A stretch of 10,236 nt of DNA from a virus. Taxonomy: Duplodnaviria > Heunggongvirae > Uroviricota > Caudoviricetes. The stretch is from IMG/VR virus record IMGVR_UViG_3300024518_005076; one strand, given 5' to 3'. This document shows positions 1-7,917 of the stretch, piece after piece (position 1 is the stretch's first letter; each line of letters opens with the position of its first letter). The translations under genes and the position numbers were made by a program. The notes under the pieces were generated by a model. The model worked only from the letters and a program-made list of their open reading frames with translations, searched no databases and was not told the origin of the DNA.

Positions 1-1
1 C

Positions 2-124
2 TTCAAATCCGCTCTCAGGAGAGCGTACGACTCTGGAGGAGAGAACACAGCCAAGGCCCTCAGGGACTTGGAGATGACCGGAAAACCAGACTATAAAGAT
101 CTCTTTGGAGGCATGTTCGGTTGA
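2..124 (+). CDS. C-terminal end of a hypothetical protein (5' partial)
   Basis: Open frame from position 2 (FKSALRRAYDSGGENTAKALRDLEMTGKPDYKDLFGGMFG*) ending at TGA 122-124, which overlaps the TTG start of the next gene (TTGA coupling). Confidence 0.6.
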   Translation, partial: FKSALRRAYDSGGENTAKALRDLEMTGKPDYKDLFGGMFG

Positions 125-852
125 TTTCCTTCAAGGATGTAACGGTCGTTGTGCTCAACTACAAACGGCCATGGAACGTAATGCGAATCTGTGATCATCT
201 CCTGAAAACTGGATTTGATGACATCATCGTGAGGGACCAATCTCCCCCGCTTGAGCATTTCGCATACCCTCTTGAACAGGTAATCCCGCCATCTGTGCGA
301 CTTGTACGTGAGGAAAACCTGCTCAATATGAGAACCTTGGGAAGGATGCTTGAGCTGGGGAAAACCAACAGAAAGTGGATTGCTACCCAGGATGATGACT
401 ATCAGGTCACTGATCTGGGCTGGCACAGACTCATGCACCAGAGATATGACGGAATTTGCTGTCAGCTACCCCGGACAAACATGAAGTTTGATCAGGCATA
501 CGAACTGCCTTTCGTGAACATCGGGTACGGCTCCATATTCCCTCGAAGCCTGGCTGCCAGATTCATTAAAGAGTGGTCAGAAAGCTACGGGGCAGCCGAC
601 CCATCCCTGATGCTTAAGGGAGATCGATGTTTCACTGCGTGGGCTGGAAAATGGCTTGCGATCCCGGCATATGACGATACCCTGAAGAAGCTCTGGAACC
701 CGGACGGAGAGCTTAGCGAAAACGACCCCAGTTCAATCAGCCTGACGGAAGAGCATTGGCCGGACACATGGAGAGCAGTGCTAAAAGCGAGGGAACTATC
801 CGCATCGAAGATCCCTGCGGGGCGAGAGTTCCCTACCTGTTCCAACAACTGA
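121..852 (+). CDS. GT-A fold glycosyltransferase (GT2/GT64-like)
   Basis: N-terminal 'VTVVVLNYKRPWNV' nucleotide-binding strand and 'IATQDDDY' DxD-type motif about 90 residues in; 243 aa; TTG start coupled to the upstream stop. Confidence 0.7.
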   Translation: MISFKDVTVVVLNYKRPWNVMRICDHLLKTGFDDIIVRDQSPPLEHFAYPLEQVIPPSVRLVREENLLNMRTLGRMLELGKTNRKWIATQDDDYQVTDLGWHRLMHQRYDGICCQLPRTNMKFDQAYELPFVNIGYGSIFPRSLAARFIKEWSESYGAADPSLMLKGDRCFTAWAGKWLAIPAYDDTLKKLWNPDGELSENDPSSISLTEEHWPDTWRAVLKARELSASKIPAGREFPTCSNN

Positions 853-872
853 GCCACAGAGAGTTCTGGCTC

Positions 873-1013
873 ATGAACCGGTACAGCAAAGAGACGTACG
901 ACATCGACATTATTTCAAGGACTTGCACATGCGGTAATTTCGTCTGGGTACGGGACGGAGAAGATCCGCATGGTTGTAAGCACGTAAGAGCTTTAAGAAA
1001 GGCATTCAAGTGA
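873..1013 (+). CDS. SWIM-type zinc finger protein
   Basis: 'YDIDIISRTCTCGNF...GCKH' matches CxC-xn-CxH. The start is uncertain: ATG 873 (no overlap) or ATG 768/TTG 756 (overlapping the GT gene). Confidence 0.65.
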   Translation: MNRYSKETYDIDIISRTCTCGNFVWVRDGEDPHGCKHVRALRKAFK

Positions 1014-1384
1014 TTGGATCAGACACAAGTTTGTTCGTTGTAACTGGAGTTATCTGTCAGGCCACAGAGACCTACGACACGAACTCCGGAAAGCCCAAAT
1101 CGAAGATCTTTGTGAAGGCAAAGAAGGAGTGGAACGGTGGCGGGTTTGAATCTGTGATTCCGATCACAGTGGATGACAAGGTGGTCTCTCAGCAGACACT
1201 GGCCAATATCCGACTCGGAACCAGGATTCAGGCGTCCGGATATCTGTCCTCGTTCGAGAAAGAGGGCACCAATGGCACGTTCTACAACTTGGCCCTGAGC
1301 GGTCAGAACGTGGCAGTTCTCAATGATGAGCCAGAGCAGGTTCCAGTCGGTGCAGCTGCTGGCGGGGATGACGTGCCATTTTGA
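1010..1384 (+). CDS. ssb: Single-stranded DNA-binding protein
   Basis: 124 aa OB-fold-sized protein with a 'GTRIQASGYL' strand and the acidic C-terminal SSB tail 'GGDDVPF'; GTGA overlap with the upstream stop. Confidence 0.85.
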   Translation: MIGSDTSLFVVTGVICQATETYDTNSGKPKSKIFVKAKKEWNGGGFESVIPITVDDKVVSQQTLANIRLGTRIQASGYLSSFEKEGTNGTFYNLALSGQNVAVLNDEPEQVPVGAAAGGDDVPF

Positions 1385-1620
1385 GAACCACAACCGAGAC
1401 GACAACAAAGATACACCTCGGGCGAGAAGAGATTGCCGATATGCTTTCTAAGTACCTTATCGGTAACAACTTCGGAACAATTCAGCCCGAGGACATCGTT
1501 GGTGCATCCTACGACCTGTTAGGGGAACTTGATTGCCTCACAGTGACGGTCAAGGGGGAGCCATGGAAACACCCGAACGGAGGAATATTGAGTGGAGAAC
1601 CTACACCTGACTCCGGTTGA
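1381..1620 (+). CDS. Hypothetical protein
   Basis: 79 aa; TTGA overlap with the ssb stop; co-oriented in the operon. Confidence 0.6.
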   Translation: MRTTTETTTKIHLGREEIADMLSKYLIGNNFGTIQPEDIVGASYDLLGELDCLTVTVKGEPWKHPNGGILSGEPTPDSG

Positions 1621-2071
1621 CGAGAATGGGATACCTCAATCTGTTTTTGATGAGTTCAGCACAGGCGCCTCACAGCACATGCTGGACTTAGACCTGACTA
1701 GACCGATCTTCTTCGATGCTCCGTGCTGTGCTGTCGTCATGGAGTTCGAGGACCCAGAGATGACAGATAACATCTGTGCGGGTGAGTTTCCGGTCTACTG
1801 CAACACCGAGCGGGGATTTGCCCTGTGGTACATGAACTTCAAATCTGCGAAGGACTTGCTCATGAACCACATCCCCGCTGGGATCGTACTGAACATCAAG
1901 GGGCAGATGCGAGCCAGGGTCACAAGCTCCGGAAAAGTGCCGTTCCCGCCCGATTTCGGGTTTGACTGGCTTGTCGAGAAGGCAATCCCGTACTTCACGG
2001 CTGCCGAACTGATGGCAAAAACTGCCATATTCGGAGAGCACAGAATTGCCCTGAACCTCAAAAGACAATGA
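1592..2071 (+). CDS. Hypothetical protein
   Basis: 159 aa ORF with GTG start preceded by a GGAGG-like AGGAA; its stop overlaps the next ATG (ATGA). No family recognised. Confidence 0.65.
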   Translation: MENLHLTPVDENGIPQSVFDEFSTGASQHMLDLDLTRPIFFDAPCCAVVMEFEDPEMTDNICAGEFPVYCNTERGFALWYMNFKSAKDLLMNHIPAGIVLNIKGQMRARVTSSGKVPFPPDFGFDWLVEKAIPYFTAAELMAKTAIFGEHRIALNLKRQ

Positions 2072-2415
2072 CGGTAGAATTGTGGGAAAAGGAGACCGCA
2101 ATGAACGCCGTCATGGTAACACCCGAGACGCTAGAGCCGATCTGCCAAGCCGCACTGGTAATCCTGAAGAATGAGGACGACCGTCGACTTCAGGCTCTCA
2201 AGAAGGATCACGCACTGCGTAAGGTCTGGTGGTTCCAAGGGAAACCGAAATTCAGCTACTGCGACCTGAGCAGTACAGAGAAGTGCTGGCTGGAAGAGAA
2301 TGCCGATCTTGCCAATGAAATCGAGTCCCTGCTTTCATCCTGTTCCGATGCAGAGAAGATCCTCGTGGATTCTGAGCTGTGGCGGAAAATGCAACAAATG
2401 ATCACTGGAGAATAA
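2068..2415 (+). CDS. Hypothetical protein
   Basis: 115 aa, helical-looking composition, ATGA coupling to the upstream gene. Confidence 0.65.
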   Translation: MTVELWEKETAMNAVMVTPETLEPICQAALVILKNEDDRRLQALKKDHALRKVWWFQGKPKFSYCDLSSTEKCWLEENADLANEIESLLSSCSDAEKILVDSELWRKMQQMITGE

Positions 2416-2417
2416 AC

Positions 2418-2750
2418 ATGACCACGCTGATTCCCGACACGTAGGTACAACACCTTTACATCCTGGTTCGGACGGACCTGTCCAAGTCTCAGCAGGCCGT
2501 CCAGGCAGCCCATGCCGGAATGGAGTCTGCCCGCAAATTCAGAACAGAAGAACATCCACACCTTGTATTGTGTGGCGTGAAATCAGAATCAGAACTGCTC
2601 TCAGCCGCCTCTCGTCTGCAGTCCATGGGAATCGATTATGTCGAATTCCGCGAACCGGACATCGGAAACCAGCTAACTGCTGTGGGAACGAAACCGATTC
2701 ATGGGAACAGAAGGAAATATCTTCGTAAATTCAAACTATTGGACCTCTGA
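2418..2750 (+). CDS. Peptidyl-tRNA hydrolase 2 (Pth2)-like protein with in-frame TAG at 2442-2444 (predicted readthrough)
   Basis: SD GGAGA 2407-2411, ATG 2418, then MTTLIPDT*(TAG)[29 protein letters not shown]...[46 protein letters not shown]...LRKFKLLDL. This follows the Pth2 pattern (YxxvRxDL, xQxxHA, vLxvxsexeL, T-A-v-g-x-x-P, lxxlkLL). 110 codons including the TAG. Confidence 0.8.
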
Positions 2751-2815
2751 CAACACACAGAGCAACGCAGTGAGACCGAAAGGGACATTTCCTAACAATA
2801 CAGAAAGGCCAAATT

Positions 2816-3319
2816 ATGAGCACTGCAACACCAACTACCGACCAGTCCGTTGTAACCGAGAGCAGAAGTCCCACAGACCATCTCCAGTCTCGATGGGGCC
2901 ACCACCCTTGCAGCTACGAGACCTACAAGAAGCTGAAGGACCTGAATAAGGTCTACATCAGGGAGCGGAATTACTTCCATGCCCTGTGTCGCCAGCTTGT
3001 GAAGGCACCCAGACACAGGACTGTGGCAGCAAACTGCGTGTCCACGGCAATGAATCTGCCCGGACCATTCATCACGCAATACAGAGAGAACGAGCGGGGC
3101 ACTAATGGATGGGGTGGGCACTGGTGGTACAGGTCTATGCCTTCAACCATCAGATACGAGAACGGGTACACAAAGAGGTATCCCGCCAAGTTTGACAACC
3201 AGGGCATTCCGATGCTTTACAGGCTGGCCAAGTACCCTAAAGCTGTCCCGTTTCCCATTCCCTTCAATCAGTCGATCTTGGATAAGATCGACTCTCTTCA
3301 CAGAAAGCTCTGTAATTAA
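2816..3319 (+). CDS. Hypothetical protein
   Basis: 167 aa; SD-like GAAAGG upstream; distinctive 'SRWGHHPCSYETYKKLK' segment; no function recognised. Confidence 0.7.
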   Translation: MSTATPTTDQSVVTESRSPTDHLQSRWGHHPCSYETYKKLKDLNKVYIRERNYFHALCRQLVKAPRHRTVAANCVSTAMNLPGPFITQYRENERGTNGWGGHWWYRSMPSTIRYENGYTKRYPAKFDNQGIPMLYRLAKYPKAVPFPIPFNQSILDKIDSLHRKLCN

Positions 3320-3334
3320 GCAACAGGAGAACAC

Positions 3335-3622
3335 ATGACACAAACGCAGCAGGCTCGTGGCGTCAAAACCAGCATCAGAACTGACGACAGTGGCAGGACT
3401 TACGTGAATTATCGCGGTACGGATTTTGTCTCGTTTGACGCAAACACGATCACATTGAGATCTGGAGGATGGCTGACGGCAACTACGAAGACCCGGATGA
3501 ACCAGGCGTCAAACCAGTTCGATCTGGGCTATTCCGTGTTCCAGAAGAACTTCGAGTGGTTCGTAAGGCTTGAGGGGAGGAACCTGGAGTTCGTTGACGG
3601 GATGACCATAGTCCGCCCGTAA
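3335..3622 (+). CDS. Conserved phage hypothetical protein (GGWxTxTTKxRxNQ motif)
   Basis: SD CAGGAG upstream. 'ITLRSGGWLTATTKTRMNQ...VFQKNFEWFV' is a pattern I recognise from small phage proteins of unknown function. Confidence 0.75.
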   Translation: MTQTQQARGVKTSIRTDDSGRTYVNYRGTDFVSFDANTITLRSGGWLTATTKTRMNQASNQFDLGYSVFQKNFEWFVRLEGRNLEFVDGMTIVRP

Positions 3623-3628
3623 CGAAAG

Positions 3629-3698
3629 GCCCGCGTAGTGTTAATCAACACGCAAGTCTCTAAAACTTGAAATCTGGGTTAAAGTCCCAGCGCGGGCA
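3629..3698 (+). tRNA. Amber suppressor tRNA, anticodon CUA
   Basis: Acceptor GCCCGCG/CGCGGGC (7/7), T8A9, D stem GTGT/ACAC, anticodon stem CAAGT/ACTTG (5/5) with loop CT-CTA-AA (anticodon 3660-3662), 4-nt variable loop, T stem CTGGG/CCCAG with loop TTAAAGT, discriminator A, CCA not encoded. Confidence 0.88.
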
Positions 3699-3855
3699 AT
3701 CAATTACCGACCCGGACCCTGTTGCCGAATAATGCCGTGTCTCGACCGACTGCGCCCGTGTAACCGAAAAAAGCCCTTACCTTCCGCGTAGAAGAATGCC
3801 ACCGAGGGAACACTTACCGGAAAGCTCACCGTAACCGATCGCTACTGTTTTTCTC

Positions 3856-3883
3856 TTGACTAATCAGGATTCTCAAATAGGCT
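3856..3883 (+). promoter_or_regulatory. Sigma70-like promoter for the second tRNA block
   Basis: TTGACT (3856-3861), 16-nt spacer, TAGGCT (3878-3883), preceded by a T-rich UP-like tract; predicted start about 3890. Confidence 0.55.
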
Positions 3884-3890
3884 TTCATCT

Positions 3891-3949
3891 GCCGACCCTC
3901 AGGGGAACTTGGACTGGCCCGGTCTTGTGACTCTGGGGTGTCGGCTTTT
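3891..3949 (+). other. Rod-like hairpin leader followed by TTTT
   Basis: GCCGAC-CCTCAG pairs with CTGGGG-(T)-GTCGGC; inner GGACTG/CGGTCT stem; lies between the promoter and the tRNA-like gene at 3950. Confidence 0.5.
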
Positions 3950-4028
3950 CACCGGGTACGCCAATCGATCAGAGCGGCTCAGATTAAAATGAGTGGAAAT
4001 GGGGGTTCAAATCCCTCCCCGGTGTCCA
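3950..4028 (+). tRNA. Atypical tRNA-like gene with 8-nt anticodon loop (GATTAAAA); anticodon undetermined (UAA if U33 is kept)
   Basis: Acceptor CACCGGG/CCCGGTG, T73, encoded CCA (4026-4028), T arm GGGGG-TTCAAAT-CCCTC, anticodon stem GCTCA/TGAGT, weak D stem. Confidence 0.75.
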
Positions 4029-4104
4029 GAAGAGGTGGTGTAGCGGAAACACGCCGTCGTGATCGATCAGGGCGGAACCCGAGGTTCAAATCCTCGTCCC
4101 TTCA
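4029..4104 (+). tRNA. Atypical tRNA-like gene with 12-nt palindromic anticodon loop (no assignable anticodon)
   Basis: Acceptor GAAGAGG/TCCCTTC (one A-C mismatch), D stem GTGT/ACAC with GG in the loop, stem CCGTC/GGCGG around GTGATCGATCAG, T arm CGAGG-TTCAAAT-CCTCG. Starts 0 nt after the previous CCA. Confidence 0.75.
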
Positions 4105-4127
4105 TTAGCGCCAGCCTTGGCGCTAAT
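4104..4127 (+). other. Perfect 10-bp hairpin after the tRNA block
   Basis: ATTAGCGCCA-GCCT-TGGCGCTAAT; no U tract, so a processing/stabilising hairpin or operator rather than a classical terminator. Confidence 0.5.
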
Positions 4128-4238
4128 CAGAAACTTTGAGTTTGAGTGCCGTGCTGGTACTCACCCGGCCCTGTCGTGCGGAATCTCGGCCTCATCACCC
4201 GGAATTCCGACGCAGGGCCTTACTTTCAGGAGATAATC

Positions 4239-4409
4239 ATGTCAGGAAAAGAAACAAAGTTCCCGGTTTACTTCGACCCGGAAAGGCGACAGTTGTACTT
4301 CATCGAGTGGGATGAGACCGGAAATAGCGACATTCCCCATCGGATTTACATCCAGACGGAGAGGCCGGTGGTCAGCTCAGCATTGATGCCACCACCGGAC
4401 GAGAAGTAA
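4239..4409 (+). CDS. Small hypothetical protein (56 aa)
   Basis: SD CAGGAG then ATG 4239 (MSGKETKFPVYFDPERRQLYFIEWDE...). The track start at 4146 lies in hairpin sequence and lacks an SD. Confidence 0.65.
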   Translation: MSGKETKFPVYFDPERRQLYFIEWDETGNSDIPHRIYIQTERPVVSSALMPPPDEK

Positions 4410-4540: not shown

Positions 4541-4918
4541 ATGACCAGACAGGAAACATTCAACAGAGTGGCGAAACACCTACTCACCCAAGGTAAGAGG
4601 TCCCTTGCCGTGTACCCCGGATCAGAGGATTATGGCCAGAAAGACTGTGCCTACCGAGGAGAGGGCGGTCTTTCGTGTGCTGTGGGATGCCTGATTCCGG
4701 ATGAAAGGTACAGACGGTCATGGGAGGGCCAAGGCGTGGAAAACGAAGATATCAAGGGGCTTTTGTGTGGCGAACTAGGCCACGACCTTAGATTGCTCCA
4801 AGATCTTCAGGGCGTTCACGATGAAACCAATCCGCTTGAGTGGCCGGAACACCTTGAAATAGTTGCGGAAGATAATGATTTAGAGTTCTCTGAAGAACTG
4901 GCTAGACTGCCAGCCTGA
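4541..4918 (+). CDS. Conserved phage hypothetical protein (CxYRG...CAVGCLI family)
   Basis: SD GAGGG then ATG 4541. The pattern 'QETFNRVAKHLLTQG...CAYRGEGGLSCAVGCLIPDERY...LQDLQGVHD...W' is typical of a small phage protein family; 125 aa. Confidence 0.75.
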   Translation: MTRQETFNRVAKHLLTQGKRSLAVYPGSEDYGQKDCAYRGEGGLSCAVGCLIPDERYRRSWEGQGVENEDIKGLLCGELGHDLRLLQDLQGVHDETNPLEWPEHLEIVAEDNDLEFSEELARLPA

Positions 4919-4936
4919 CTGTCCATTACTATCGTA

Positions 4937-5053
4937 TGGCCGGAATGGAGTAAGAGCCATTCAGGGGCCTTCCTAAAGTTGGTTGAACTTGGCACACAAA
5001 CATGTATGATTCAAACAGCTCACAAGAGGGATGGCTCTTACCCATTACGGCTA
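4937..5053 (+). ncRNA. Long rod RNA candidate: 24-bp closing stem, asymmetric bubble, 11-bp apical stem
   Basis: TGGCCG/CGGCTA + AATGG/CCATT + GTAAGAGCCATTC/GGATGGCTCTTAC; bubble 4963-4976 and 5021-5028; AGTTGGTTGAA/TTCAAACAGCT (10 of 11 pairs). The G-U pairs and bulges suggest selection at the RNA level. Confidence 0.55.
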
Positions 5054-5135
5054 CTCATCTCGGGGAGATGAAGCCTGCTCGACAAAGACTGGCGTGCCAA
5101 GCAGTCCAAGTCAGCCCTCGAATTCCCCGGCCCAT

Positions 5136-5176
5136 AAACCCAAGTTCTTCTCTTCGGAGAGGCGCTTGGGTTTTTT
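5136..5176 (+). terminator. Intrinsic terminator with cUUCGg tetraloop
   Basis: AAACCCAAG...TTCTC-TTCG-GAGAG...CTTGGGTTT followed by a T run. Confidence 0.75.
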
Positions 5177-5200
5177 CGTGCGCCAAGATTGGCGCTATCA

Positions 5201-5357
5201 GAACAGGAAGCCCACTTGGAAGTGGGAGCTACGGTCTCCAGATTTGCGACAGGACAAGGGCCATGAATGCTGAACTGCCACACCAAAGGCACATTCAGAC
5301 TACAAGGGTAAACGTCCGAGGCACTCTGGCATGCAGGTTCGAATCCTGCCCTGTTCA
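5201..5357 (+). ncRNA. 157-nt tRNA-like RNA with expanded D and anticodon domains
   Basis: Perfect acceptor GAACAGG (5201-5207)/CCTGTTC (5350-5356) + A, canonical T arm GCAGG-TTCGAAT-CCTGC, CCAGA (5238-5242)/TCTGG (5325-5329) stem enclosing 82 nt, 3-nt linker to the T arm. Confidence 0.7.
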
Positions 5358-5358
5358 A

Positions 5359-5973
5359 TTTAGCCCGATGAGAGGCTTGTAACCGATAGGATGCTTTGAG
5401 TATTCATTGAGCCGAAATGACCTGTGAGTCCGAACAACCGCCTTTGAGTACGGGACCGCAGCAGTTCCAGAATCGATCTGAGATCGAACACGCTGCCTGA
5501 GCATTCAGCCGATCGCTCGAATGATACCGAAAGGAAGCATTTAATCTGGGCGTGTCTAGATCCTTAAGTCGCCAAAGATGGCGAAATGGGACCGCAGAAG
5601 TTCCACAAATCGTCAAGATTGACGAATACTCTGCTTGAGCATTGAGTCGACAGCAGGTCCCCAAGATGGGACAGACCTGGCCGTGCAGGGATGCGAGGTT
5701 TGAGAATCCGCAGGACGCACACGGCGGAGGCATTAAGTTCACTTAATCCGAATGCATACACCACTGCATCACGGACGTGGGTAGGACTCCTTGCGGGGAG
5801 CGGTAGGATACCACGTTAAAAACACGGAGGGTGACTAAGTGATGCCCGGCTCCGCGAGCGGTGGTCAGGTTGCCCATACATTCACCTGTATGGGTTCCTT
5901 GCGCTCAACCACTCTCCCTAAGCGGTAGCTGCTCTGAGTCAGTGTAGTGGACTCTGGGGAGTCCGGATGACAC
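5359..5973 (+). ncRNA. Large ornate structured RNA candidate (~615 nt; GOLLD/ROOL-like in size and context)
   Basis: No credible + strand gene in an otherwise gene-packed genome. Many nested helices (e.g. GCCGTG/CACGGC, ACGTGG/CCACGT, CCCATACA/TGTATGGG, GGACTC/GAGTCC), a predicted pseudoknot and a duplicated module with compensatory changes. Boundaries approximate. Confidence 0.7.
5452..5650 (+). repeat. Two diverged copies of a ~62-nt structured module (5452-5512 and 5588-5650)
   Basis: GGGACC-GCAGC-AGT...TCGATC/GATCGA...AC-GCTGC-CTGAGCATTCAGCCGA versus GGGACC-GCAGA-AGT...TCGTCA/TGACGA...AC-TCTGC-TTGAGCATTGAGTCGA. Confidence 0.8.
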
Positions 5974-6000
5974 AGTTATGAGCCTGGAGAGAGAAATCTG

Positions 6001-6234
6001 ATGACGCAGGACAGTGATCTGACAGGTGACGATCTGCTTGATCGGATAAGAGAATTGGAACTTGAAGGCCCAGGGCAGGGATGGAGGCACCTTCTGTCGG
6101 CCTGTCGTGCGGAAATTGCCCAGCTCAGAGAGGCTCTTGCTGAATCGATCGAGGAATCTGATGCATGGGAGCGCAAAGCCAAGTCCATGGCGACTGAATG
6201 GGAAAACACAGATTTCATGAGGCCAGATCAATAA
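6001..6234 (+). CDS. Hypothetical coiled-coil protein
   Basis: SD GGAGAG upstream; heptad-like 'EIAQLREALAESIEE'. Confidence 0.7.
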   Translation: MTQDSDLTGDDLLDRIRELELEGPGQGWRHLLSACRAEIAQLREALAESIEESDAWERKAKSMATEWENTDFMRPDQ

Positions 6235-6262: not shown

Positions 6263-6607
6263 GTGGCGGACGATTATGGGAGTACGATTAACATGAATGT
6301 ATGGGATGACGCAGATACACAGCTGATGGTTACGGCTGCACACCGGTACTGCCTGCATCGAAAAACCTACATAACCCACGCTGGACATAAATGGCTGGAG
6401 GAGAATCGAGCCAACTTCAATCGGCAGACCATCTTTATGATTGTAAGAGATACGATCCGGGCAATCATGGGTGGGAATGCCGGGTCAGAAACAATCGACG
6501 CTCCAGGCTGGCGGAGACTTGCTCTGCTTCTGTTTTCTGAGATGCGAGAGGACGACCGGGCCAGTATCCGGGAACAGTTTCCTGATTTTGAGGGGATTGC
6601 AGAATGA
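6263..6607 (+). CDS. Conserved phage hypothetical protein (AxRYCLxRxTY motif)
   Basis: SD GAGG, GTG start; 'AAHRYCLHRKTYIT...WL...IVRDT...G...D...W' pattern common in phage proteins. Confidence 0.7.
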   Translation: MADDYGSTINMNVWDDADTQLMVTAAHRYCLHRKTYITHAGHKWLEENRANFNRQTIFMIVRDTIRAIMGGNAGSETIDAPGWRRLALLLFSEMREDDRASIREQFPDFEGIAE

Positions 6608-7107
6608 AAGTGGTCAGTAATCTGTCTGGACTGGAACTTGATACGATTGTTGAGCTGGAAGTCTTCGGAGACGATCTGTCCTGTGCGTTTGACGAGAGAA
6701 GGATTCCTCAGGCTTGCGACCTCTTTGTGCCGAAATACCAGGATGGCCCTCGGAACCTTGTGATCGACGGCACGAGATATCCTCCAGAGGACTGGGTGAG
6801 GCTCTGTGGGGGTCCAGGGTACGATTTCTGGCATTACCGGGAAGGGAAGCCATGGCAGAAGGATCTTGAGGCTGTGATTGAGGCCTACCGTACAGACCCT
6901 CGGGCTTTTCATAGAGACTTGAATTTGTGCTTCCGGCACTTAGTTCCAAATATTCCCAACTTCAGACTCAGCAGGCATACAGATTGTTGGAAAGCGTGCT
7001 GGATATCCGAAAGAGACTCCCCAGACTCTCGGTTCGGGGTAACTCCCGAAGAAGCCATCTGTCGTGCCGCCATAGTAGCCAAAGGGGAAGTATGTACTAC
7101 ACCCTAG
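6604..7107 (+). CDS. Phage ABA sandwich domain-like protein
   Basis: N-terminal 'LSGLELDTIVELEVFG' and C-terminal 'WKACW...GVTPEEAICRAAIVA' fit the phage ABA-sandwich pattern; ends in TAG. Confidence 0.55.
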   Translation: MKVVSNLSGLELDTIVELEVFGDDLSCAFDERRIPQACDLFVPKYQDGPRNLVIDGTRYPPEDWVRLCGGPGYDFWHYREGKPWQKDLEAVIEAYRTDPRAFHRDLNLCFRHLVPNIPNFRLSRHTDCWKACWISERDSPDSRFGVTPEEAICRAAIVAKGEVCTTP

Positions 7108-7319
7108 ATCAGTTCATCGAGCGGCTGGCCTCACTACGCAGTGAAATCGAGGGTGGTGGTGAATCTCCTGTATGTGTTCTGGATACCGACAGGATTGCTG
7201 GCGGATCATGGTATCCTGCCTCGGTCGAAGTCCAGAACGCCGCCCAAGAGACCGCAGATATCTGGGATCTTCCAGTCCATGGAGAGGATGGGGCTGCTCA
7301 GATTATCTCGATCTTCTAG
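7092..7319 (+). CDS. Hypothetical protein (75 aa)
   Basis: SD AAGGGG then ATG 7092 (MYYTLDQFIERLASLRSEIEGGGESPVCV...); ends TAG-AAT-TGA. Confidence 0.65.
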   Translation: MYYTLDQFIERLASLRSEIEGGGESPVCVLDTDRIAGGSWYPASVEVQNAAQETADIWDLPVHGEDGAAQIISIF

Positions 7320-7329
7320 AATTGACTCT

Positions 7330-7917
7330 ATGAGTAAAAGGCATCGCCACAAGAAGCAGAAGCCGAAAAAACCCATCGACTATCTCTCAACACTGGATGA
7401 TCACATCCACATTTGGTGCGATGGAGCGTGCCACCCGAATCCGAACGGGGATGGCGGCTGGGCTTTCTGCTATCAGACTGTCGCCAAAACAGTCAAGTTC
7501 TCGTCCGGAGGCGTCCCGCAGACGACGAACAACAGGATGGAGATCATGGCCATCCTGATGGCTCTTAAGCACTTCACAGAGCCAGCCAGGCTGCTTGTTC
7601 TGAGCGACAGTCGATATGCCGTGAACGGAGCCAGCAGCTGGGCTCGTGCATGGAGCAAGAACGACTGGAGGACTCGTGGGAAAGGAAGGCCGGAAGCCAA
7701 GAACAGGGATCTGTGGGAACAAGTGCTAAAAGCCAAAGATTTTCACATTGATACCAGATTTCAGTGGGTTAAAGGGCATTCTGGCATAGAATTGAACGAG
7801 TTCTGTGACTCTTTGGCTCAAGATGAGAGGGTCGCCCTGTTGCGGGAGCGGTCTAATGAAAAGAGAAGAGAAATCCAGGATGGTCTTTTGTCCTGTGTGG
7901 AAACTAATGAATGCTAA
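7330..7917 (+). CDS. rnhA: Ribonuclease HI
   Basis: Complete RNase HI motif set: WCDGAC, GGW, TTNNRMEI, SDSRY, KNRDLW, WVKGHSG, NEFCDSLA. The start at ATG 7330 is my choice; the track start at 7141 overlaps the upstream gene. Confidence 0.93.
   Translation: MSKRHRHKKQKPKKPIDYLSTLDDHIHIWCDGACHPNPNGDGGWAFCYQTVAKTVKFSSGGVPQTTNNRMEIMAILMALKHFTEPARLLVLSDSRYAVNGASSWARAWSKNDWRTRGKGRPEAKNRDLWEQVLKAKDFHIDTRFQWVKGHSGIELNEFCDSLAQDERVALLRERSNEKRREIQDGLLSCVETNEC

Follow-up and report, generated by a model that had tools for sequence, protein, structure and literature searches.

A Pth2-like phage gene probably gated by an early amber codon and paired with a phage-encoded CUA suppressor tRNA

The DNA under study is a 10,236-nucleotide (nt) stretch (IMG/VR record IMGVR_UViG_3300024518_005076), called here in its entirety the window, from a marine phage of ~100 kb found in seawater. 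It carries a small cassette of two elements: a gene for a protein related to peptidyl-tRNA hydrolase 2 (Pth2), whose reading frame is interrupted by an amber codon shortly behind the start, and a transfer RNA with a CUA anticodon, tRNA(CUA). All positions in the window refer to the plus strand. The Pth2-like gene opens with a Shine-Dalgarno (SD) sequence, GGAGA (2407–2411), 6 nt before the ATG at 2418, which begins an eight-codon leader encoding MTTLIPDT (2418–2441) and is the sole SD-led start for this frame. The leader ends at an in-frame TAG (2442–2444), codon 9 of the gene, in the context ACG TAG GTA; we refer to this codon as the gate. The same frame then continues through the Pth2-like domain (2445–2750), with 101 codons and a TGA stop (2748–2750). 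No ATG, GTG or TTG lies in frame between the gate and the ATG at 2520, from which gene callers report an open reading frame (ORF) of 76 amino acids (2520–2750). On the upstream side, a gene for a 115-residue protein of no known family (2068–2415) ends in a TAA (2413–2415) that is separated from the leader ATG by a gap of 2 nt. The tRNA(CUA) occupies 3629–3698, two genes downstream. A first-pass annotation, made by a model from the letters alone, had described the SD sequence, the start codon, the leader peptide, the TAG and an intact CUA-anticodon tRNA, and all are present where it had placed them.

The frame behind the gate encodes a domain of the Pth2 fold. The read-through product matches the Pfam family PTH2 (PF01981) with 26.6 bits over residues 13–107, covering profile positions 3–114 of 115, whereas the 76-residue product from ATG 2520 scores 13.5 bits; the gathering cut-off of the family is 23 bits and is reached by the read-through product only. 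An AlphaFold2 model of the read-through product has a pLDDT (predicted local distance difference test) of 94.5, and the top 13 PDB matches found with Foldseek are all Pth2 or Bit1, with template-modelling (TM) scores of 0.64–0.78 (best 0.70–0.78). In the model, strand 1 is formed by residues 11–18 and helix 1 by residues 23–40. The 76-residue product would therefore lack the core strand, most of helix 1 and the residues R18, D20, Q29 and H32, which are nearly invariant in the family. Profile and structure thus bear out the early observation that the frame runs past the TAG into the first strand and helix of Pth2, both of which are cut off by the 2520 start. The gate codon itself (residue 9) sits in the low-confidence N-terminal tail of the model.

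The protein belongs to a large family (1,584 clusters at E < 1e-3), most members of which start M-Y-V-L-V-R at the place of residue 13. The window has, in place of a canonical start at this usual methionine, the SD and ATG, the short leader and the in-frame TAG ahead of the domain. A profile built from 73 members matches the solved Pth2 structures 24bt (E 6e-8) and 2zv3 (E 2e-5), and D81 and T87, conserved in at least 90% of the 73 sequences, align in Pth2 structures with the D-A-G loop Asp and the Thr downstream. Archaeal and eukaryotic Pth2 (PDB 2zv3, 3erj, 1wn2, 1xty; human Bit1/PTRH2, 1q7s) share with the phage protein not only the fold (TM scores of 0.70–0.78) but also the HA motif in the helix and the Asp in the DAG-type loop; sequence identity amounts to 16–27%.

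The codons between the gate and the reported start also bear on whether this segment is translated. Over the 25 codons from the TAG to ATG 2520, synonymous and non-synonymous differences stand at 4:1 between the window and its closest relative (L001, 89% protein identity) and at 9:6 between the window and a second relative (L002, 79%); in the rest of the gene the corresponding ratios are 19:8 and 32:16. These ratios indicate that the segment is translated, and the codons behind the TAG are under purifying selection. No frameshifts or further stops were seen in the gene of the close relatives. A decaying pseudogene, or a locus from which only the 76-residue C-terminal fragment is made, would agree with the stumps or blanks that gene callers and GenBank records show in place of the gene. 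We regard this account as scarcely credible, given the selection pattern behind the TAG, the recurrence of the same 'defect' at the same place in 19 lineages (see below) and the absence from the stump of the invariant residues and the core strand. The gate TAG is the same in three independent assemblies of the phage (JGI, ENA and Logan), and contigs from two more seawater metagenome runs have it too. With five independent samples in agreement, the TAG is not a sequencing error, a possibility that the first-pass annotation had named as one that would refute its reading. None of the public runs containing the sequence is listed as an RNA dataset. A search of IMG/VR viral contigs with the read-through protein gave 30 pattern matches, none of which was confirmed, and a megablast of the window against INPHARED gave no match.

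The gate is not peculiar to this phage. The same order of SD, ATG, one to seven codons, TAG and Pth2-like domain is found in 18 further lineages, 13 of them complete phage genomes, so that with the window 19 lineages are known, spread over 35–89% protein identity and 32–53% GC. The gate stop is TAG in 19/19 lineages, the base on its 3' side is a purine in every one (A in 13, G in 6), and an SD sequence precedes the leader ATG in 17. The two closest relatives read TGATG CTG TAG GTA CAA CAC (L001) and TAATG TTG TAG ATA CAA CAC (L002), the stop of the upstream gene overlapping the leader ATG in both (TGATG and TAATG, respectively). Distant metagenomic homologues (43–50% identity, 37–43% GC) are gated as well, with the leaders MLKSSEFT (L006), MYFAKPHT (L007) and ML (L010), each behind a strong SD. 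A tblastn search against 50,697 phage records returned 36 records, nearly all of jumbo phages, of which one record per distinct phage was inspected. Here the leaders are MAQ in GAP32 and CBB; MTH in Serratia phage BF and LR756511; MSH in Yersinia phage fHe-Yen9-04; MK in XacN1, RAS14 and LR756500; MKK in Xoo-sp13; MT in Acinetobacter phage ME3; ML in Ralstonia phage RsoM2USA and Salmonella phage Arash; and MS in LR756501. Across all lineages the leader types before the stop are accordingly ML, MK, MKK, MT, MS, MAQ, MTH and MSH, or eight codons ending in T. At least 11 GenBank phage records, in which the gene is missing, truncated or begun at an internal codon, can be corrected on this basis. 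Among 22 ungated metagenomic homologues, the nearest upstream in-frame stop was a TAG in none, and a leader-TAG scan of 12 related loci (eight of them tRNA-array phage loci, the Pth2-like gene having its own ATG) brought up no extra gated gene.

Several side observations concern the gated genes of individual lineages. The three eight-codon leaders share a 9-mer across the gate, CACGTAGGT (..C ACG TAG GT.), at 2436–2447 in the window, 3670–3681 in L006 and 5977–5988 in L007; the leader peptides are otherwise unrelated, and genome GC differs among the three lineages. L006 is a 59-kb contig with sugar-metabolism genes that has the gated Pth2-like gene aboard, and it may be cellular rather than phage. 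In L002 the Pth2-like gene also has a TAG as its own terminator (6277–6279), followed by C, and its gate TAG is followed by A. In XacN1, Xoo-sp13 and RAS14 the Pth2-like domain is fused to an N-terminal domain of ~180 residues, and the gate lies at the beginning of the fused frame. The record of Salmonella phage Arash (OQ632216.1, L068) annotates a 50-residue stump at 1660–1812 as 'peptidyl-tRNA hydrolase'; the full gene begins with ATG CTG TAG at ~1480.

The second element of the cassette, the tRNA(CUA) at 3629–3698, is called by ARAGORN, scores 58.5 bits against the Rfam tRNA model (cut-off 29) and folds into a cloverleaf with z = -5.8. On the same strand as the gated gene and 1.2 kb downstream of it, the tRNA begins 6 nt past the stop codon of its upstream neighbour. 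The two genes in between encode a 167-residue protein of no known family (2816–3319) and a 95-residue protein of the Kyano_Gp96 (PF23790) / phrog_554 family (3335–3622). A scan of positions 1–4400 for sigma-70 promoters and terminators found none between the gene and the tRNA(CUA), with the proviso that host promoters may differ; this absence fits weakly with co-transcription of the two. The tRNA body is minimal, with a short D loop, the T loop UUAAAGU, A73 and no encoded CCA. Pyrrolysine-type decoding was considered and dropped, being suggested only by the ARAGORN habit of labelling every CUA tRNA 'Pyl'. In the low-depth contig of one seawater run (X5), a G>T change at 3669 would break the C25-G41 pair of the anticodon stem, and it may be an error. 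Two tRNA-like units follow downstream, one at 3950–4025 with 27.8 bits, just under the Rfam cut-off, and one at 4029–4104 that ARAGORN calls a tRNA-Asp, with AUC as its unusual anticodon.

The first-pass annotation had proposed to check whether homologues with the gate co-occur with a CUA tRNA, and the relatives bear this out: all 13 complete gated phage genomes encode tRNA(CUA). In L002 the syntenic place is taken by an orthologue of the tRNA(CUA) whose acceptor stem is the same. The distance between tRNA and gene varies, from 0.45 kb upstream of the gene in ME3 to ~1 kb downstream in Arash and LR756500, 2.4 kb downstream in LR756501 (two copies), ~3–4 kb downstream in GAP32, BF, fHe-Yen9-04 and CBB, and 8–13 kb away in LR756511 and RsoM2USA. 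In XacN1, Xoo-sp13 and RAS14 the tRNA is distant from the gene. XacN1 (AP018399.1, L055 34578–37604) has two tRNA(CUA) in tandem, with a permuted transfer-messenger RNA (tmRNA) at most 1 kb after them, in each terminal repeat. The tRNA at 2798–2872 of Arash is labelled tRNA-Phe in the record, and ARAGORN reads its anticodon as CUA. Of the two ungated cultured members, no tRNA(CUA) was found in RaK2 (ARAGORN on all its Rfam tRNA hits) or in Hallingskeid (by pattern scan only). RaK2, a Klebsiella phage (JQ513383.1; L093 19242–19317, L038 1471–1485), has a Pth2-like gene with its own ATG and an in-frame TAG three codons upstream of it, together with an annotated pseudo-tRNA that holds CUA inside an enlarged loop of ~11 nt. 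These two features may be a decayed gate and its key.

The association between enzyme and tRNA extends to genomes without a gate. In 14 distant tRNA-array phage loci, where the Pth2-like gene is ungated and has its own ATG, tRNA(CUA) lies 0–1.6 kb downstream and is usually followed by a tmRNA. The link between enzyme and suppressor thus reaches further than the gate, and this synteny is compatible with a product that might act on the recoding event. The pair in the window is one case of a widespread phage cassette in which a Pth2-like enzyme and tRNA(CUA) are often joined by a phage tmRNA. In the window itself, no tmRNA was found by ARAGORN at default settings or by Rfam, and calls at low threshold were implausible; ~1.1 kb at 4918–6001 has no convincing ORF, and a tmRNA was expected from the synteny in relatives, which have one behind the suppressor tRNA.

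A phage-encoded tRNA(CUA) is a hallmark of phages in which TAG has become a sense codon (bioRxiv 10.1101/2021.08.26.457843; PMC9523058), and the TAG of the Pth2-like gene might accordingly be one of many in a genome with a changed code. The genome speaks against such an account. Over ~62 kb of the ~99-kb contig, the 82 called genes end in TAA (34), TGA (28) or TAG (20, or 24%). The earlier remark that most other genes end in TGA or TAA is roughly right. Across ~10 kb of structural genes, those for portal, prohead protease, major capsid and tail are intact and without an in-frame TAG. We scanned the same ~62 kb for SD-led leaders of at most 10 codons that end in TAG and open into a frame of at least 60 codons, and a single case on a coding strand emerged, the Pth2-like gene. 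With one such case in ~62 kb and the same architecture in 18 other lineages, the arrangement is more than chance, and a TAG position kept through 19 lineages is unlike random sense usage. The base after the ordinary terminal TAGs of the phage is a pyrimidine in 13 of 20, compared with 0 of 19 at the gates. Summed ORF length under read-through of TAG, TGA or TAA did not discriminate between codes. Over the ~62 kb covered, the phage uses the standard code, in agreement with the first-pass annotation, which had seen no genome-wide recoding, and a changed code is exceedingly unlikely.

Two further TAG-spanning frames were considered as evidence of recoding and rejected. The first, on the minus strand of L006 (5999–8062), joins a TnpB (IS605 OrfB / Cas12f-like) to a GT61 glycosyltransferase, which are unrelated parts. 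The second, at 6604–7917 of the window, places a 167-residue ORF in frame with an RNase H (PF00075) across a TAG at 7105–7107; its linker looks non-coding and the gene callers place another ORF there, so this TAG is probably a coincidence and not a second gated gene. Elsewhere in the phage (L079 10536–15345; L033 7766–8620; L076 1593–3872) we noted an HK97-type portal, protease and capsid, a ThiF/E1-like gene, CsrA, ParB, and an N6/N4 methyltransferase interrupted by a LAGLIDADG domain.

Taken together, conservation of the gate, the presence of tRNA(CUA) in 13/13 complete gated genomes and the purine behind the gate in 19/19 lineages strongly support the pairing of an amber-gated Pth2-like gene with a CUA suppressor encoded in cis, which the first-pass annotation had put forward, and it is probable that synthesis of the hydrolase depends on the phage's own suppressor tRNA. 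Ribosomes would initiate at the SD and ATG 2418 and reach the UAG at codon 9, where tRNA(CUA), probably made on the same transcript, would compete with the host release factor RF1. Decoding of the UAG would yield a 110-residue protein of the Pth2 fold; if the codon is left undecoded, the eight-residue leader peptide would be released or dropped off. Because the gate falls in an apparently unstructured N-terminus, whatever amino acid tRNA(CUA) carries should be tolerated. A purine on the 3' side of UAG reportedly, from the work of Bossi and of Miller and Albertini in 1983, makes suppression of the amber codon in E. coli more efficient. On very short ORFs termination is inefficient and peptidyl-tRNA tends to drop off. 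Both the purine context and the behaviour of short ORFs would suit a gate placed directly after the start.

As for purpose, the arrangement might tie synthesis of the enzyme to active UAG suppression, for instance to clear the peptidyl-tRNA and stalled-ribosome by-products of read-through; or, as the first-pass annotation proposed, it might couple tRNA recycling to the state of translation. We infer that read-through of the gate would take place and be tRNA-dependent and that the enzyme would hydrolyse an ester-linked tRNA species. Given the recurrent tmRNA, the phages may have a module that deals with what UAG read-through leaves behind, namely ribosomes that have run past TAG-ended genes and dropped peptidyl-tRNA. 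A more elaborate version would close the loop: the Pth2-like protein would act on the acylated or peptidyl form of the suppressor, or on the products of UAG read-through, and its suppressor-dependent synthesis would set or buffer the level of read-through, with the Lys-to-Gln change described below as the sign of a new substrate specificity and the tmRNA as a further part of a portable 'controlled read-through' module. Such a feedback loop on the suppressor is unlikely, and less likely than a module for handling by-products.

Several observations weigh against an amber gate opened by the phage's own tRNA for an active hydrolase. First, TAG terminates a quarter of the phage's genes, and strong suppression would therefore extend many proteins. 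Second, the tRNA(CUA) body is non-canonical, without GG in the D loop or TTC in the T loop, and its best matches among neighbouring phage tRNAs, those for Asn or Trp (0.6–0.79), point to no single amino acid. Third, the protein may lack peptidyl-tRNA hydrolase activity. The Lys in the GK(G)K loop, which precedes the xQxxHA helix, is reportedly, from work on Pth2 of S. solfataricus, the proposed catalytic residue. In profile alignment to 24bt and 2zv3, Q25/Q26 stand opposite this Lys next to a two-residue deletion of the loop; the phage protein is also shorter than the Pth2 structures and has a four-residue deletion after the Asp. The change to Gln holds across the whole family (consensus QQAVQAxHA), which extends a caveat that the first-pass annotation had raised for the window alone. 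'Peptidyl-tRNA hydrolase' is therefore an assignment of fold, not of activity. The remaining two points lead to other accounts of the gate, and we consider these in turn.

In four lineages a possible start codon lies 3–9 codons past the TAG (GTG in L002 and ME3, ATG in XacN1 and Xoo-sp13), and reinitiation could therefore serve there. These starts favour an account in which the UAG is a true stop, the leader is a regulatory minigene (lambda bar-like, or a sensor specific for RF1), the domain is made by reinitiation or from a near-cognate start, and tRNA(CUA) serves other targets. Lambda bar-type minigenes consist of an SD, an AUG, one to a few codons and a stop; they are prone to drop-off, and their peptidyl-tRNA products are substrates of Pth. 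The leaders of two to three codons resemble them, and tRNA(CUA) must have other uses, since it is kept in the 14 ungated loci. Reinitiation is hard to reconcile with the window, L001, L010, fHe-Yen9-04, BF, RsoM2USA, Arash and the three LR7565xx genomes, in which the first canonical start is 19–131 codons past the TAG or absent; in the cultured phages fHe-Yen9-04, BF and RsoM2USA no in-frame ATG, GTG or TTG was found anywhere behind it. A true stop would also leave aside that the codon is TAG in all lineages, that tRNA(CUA) is encoded wherever a whole genome is available, and that a purine at position +4 fits suppression and not strong termination. We judge a true stop distinctly unlikely.

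The last point is that no tRNA(CUA) was found within the available sequence of the gated L001 (11.5 kb), L006 and L007. The gate might then be read without a phage tRNA, by near-cognate host tRNAs when RF1 is limiting or inhibited during infection, and would act as a sensor of RF1 activity. UAG is the only RF1-specific stop codon, which would suit a sensor of this kind. Basal read-through of UAG in bacteria is low, however, and tRNA(CUA) is present in every complete gated genome, often 0.5–4 kb from the gene. An RF1 sensor that dispenses with the phage tRNA is in our view very unlikely, and dependence on the phage's own suppressor remains the probable explanation.

The gated gene can be compared with three known systems. 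In the TAG-to-Gln 'code 15' phages (crAss-like, Lak and other gut phages), suppressor tRNAs have been described and read-through has been proposed as post-transcriptional control (bioRxiv 10.1101/2021.08.26.457843, PMC9523058). Those phages and the present one have in common a phage-encoded tRNA(CUA) for in-frame UAG in phage genes. Code-15 phages have dozens of mostly late genes with many TAGs and have largely dropped TAG as a stop, whereas the present phage keeps the standard code and has one gene with one TAG at a conserved spot just behind the start. With prfB, the gene for RF2, the Pth2-like gene shares the character of a translation-factor-like gene with a conserved early in-frame stop, at which competition sets the output. 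In prfB the stop is UGA, bypassed by a +1 frameshift, and the gene's own product reads it, which gives direct negative feedback; in the Pth2-like gene, a separate tRNA would read through in frame 0. The third system is the lambda bar minigenes and Pth (rap), with which the leader in the window shares a common minigene anatomy. The bar minigenes stand alone, whereas the leader is fused in frame to the hydrolase gene. The enzyme differs as well: its fold is that of Pth2 instead of bacterial Pth, and the Lys of the Pth2 loop is missing.

That phages carry suppressor tRNAs and that recoding of stop codons can regulate expression was known already (bioRxiv 10.1101/2021.08.26.457843); what is new is a single conserved gated gene in standard-code phages. 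A full-text literature search for a published description of the gate found none. For XacN1 no target was identified for its two CUA suppressors (PMC5852040), and for RsoM2USA only generic UAG stops were named (PMC8504454). Both analyses looked at read-through of the terminal stops of annotated genes and missed the gated gene, because the ORF is unannotated or mis-started and has its TAG at codon 3. Many standard-code phages carry amber-suppressor tRNAs, well-studied cultured jumbo phages such as these two among them, and the purpose of the tRNAs has openly been called unknown. A conserved gene readable only with tRNA(CUA) would supply the first concrete, bench-testable target for the suppressors of standard-code phages. 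The hypothesis is directly testable, since phage systems such as those of Yersinia, Serratia, Salmonella, Acinetobacter and Xanthomonas can be grown in culture. If it is true, these phages would possess a natural single-gene translational switch made of one tRNA and one codon, like the amber-suppression switches that have been engineered.

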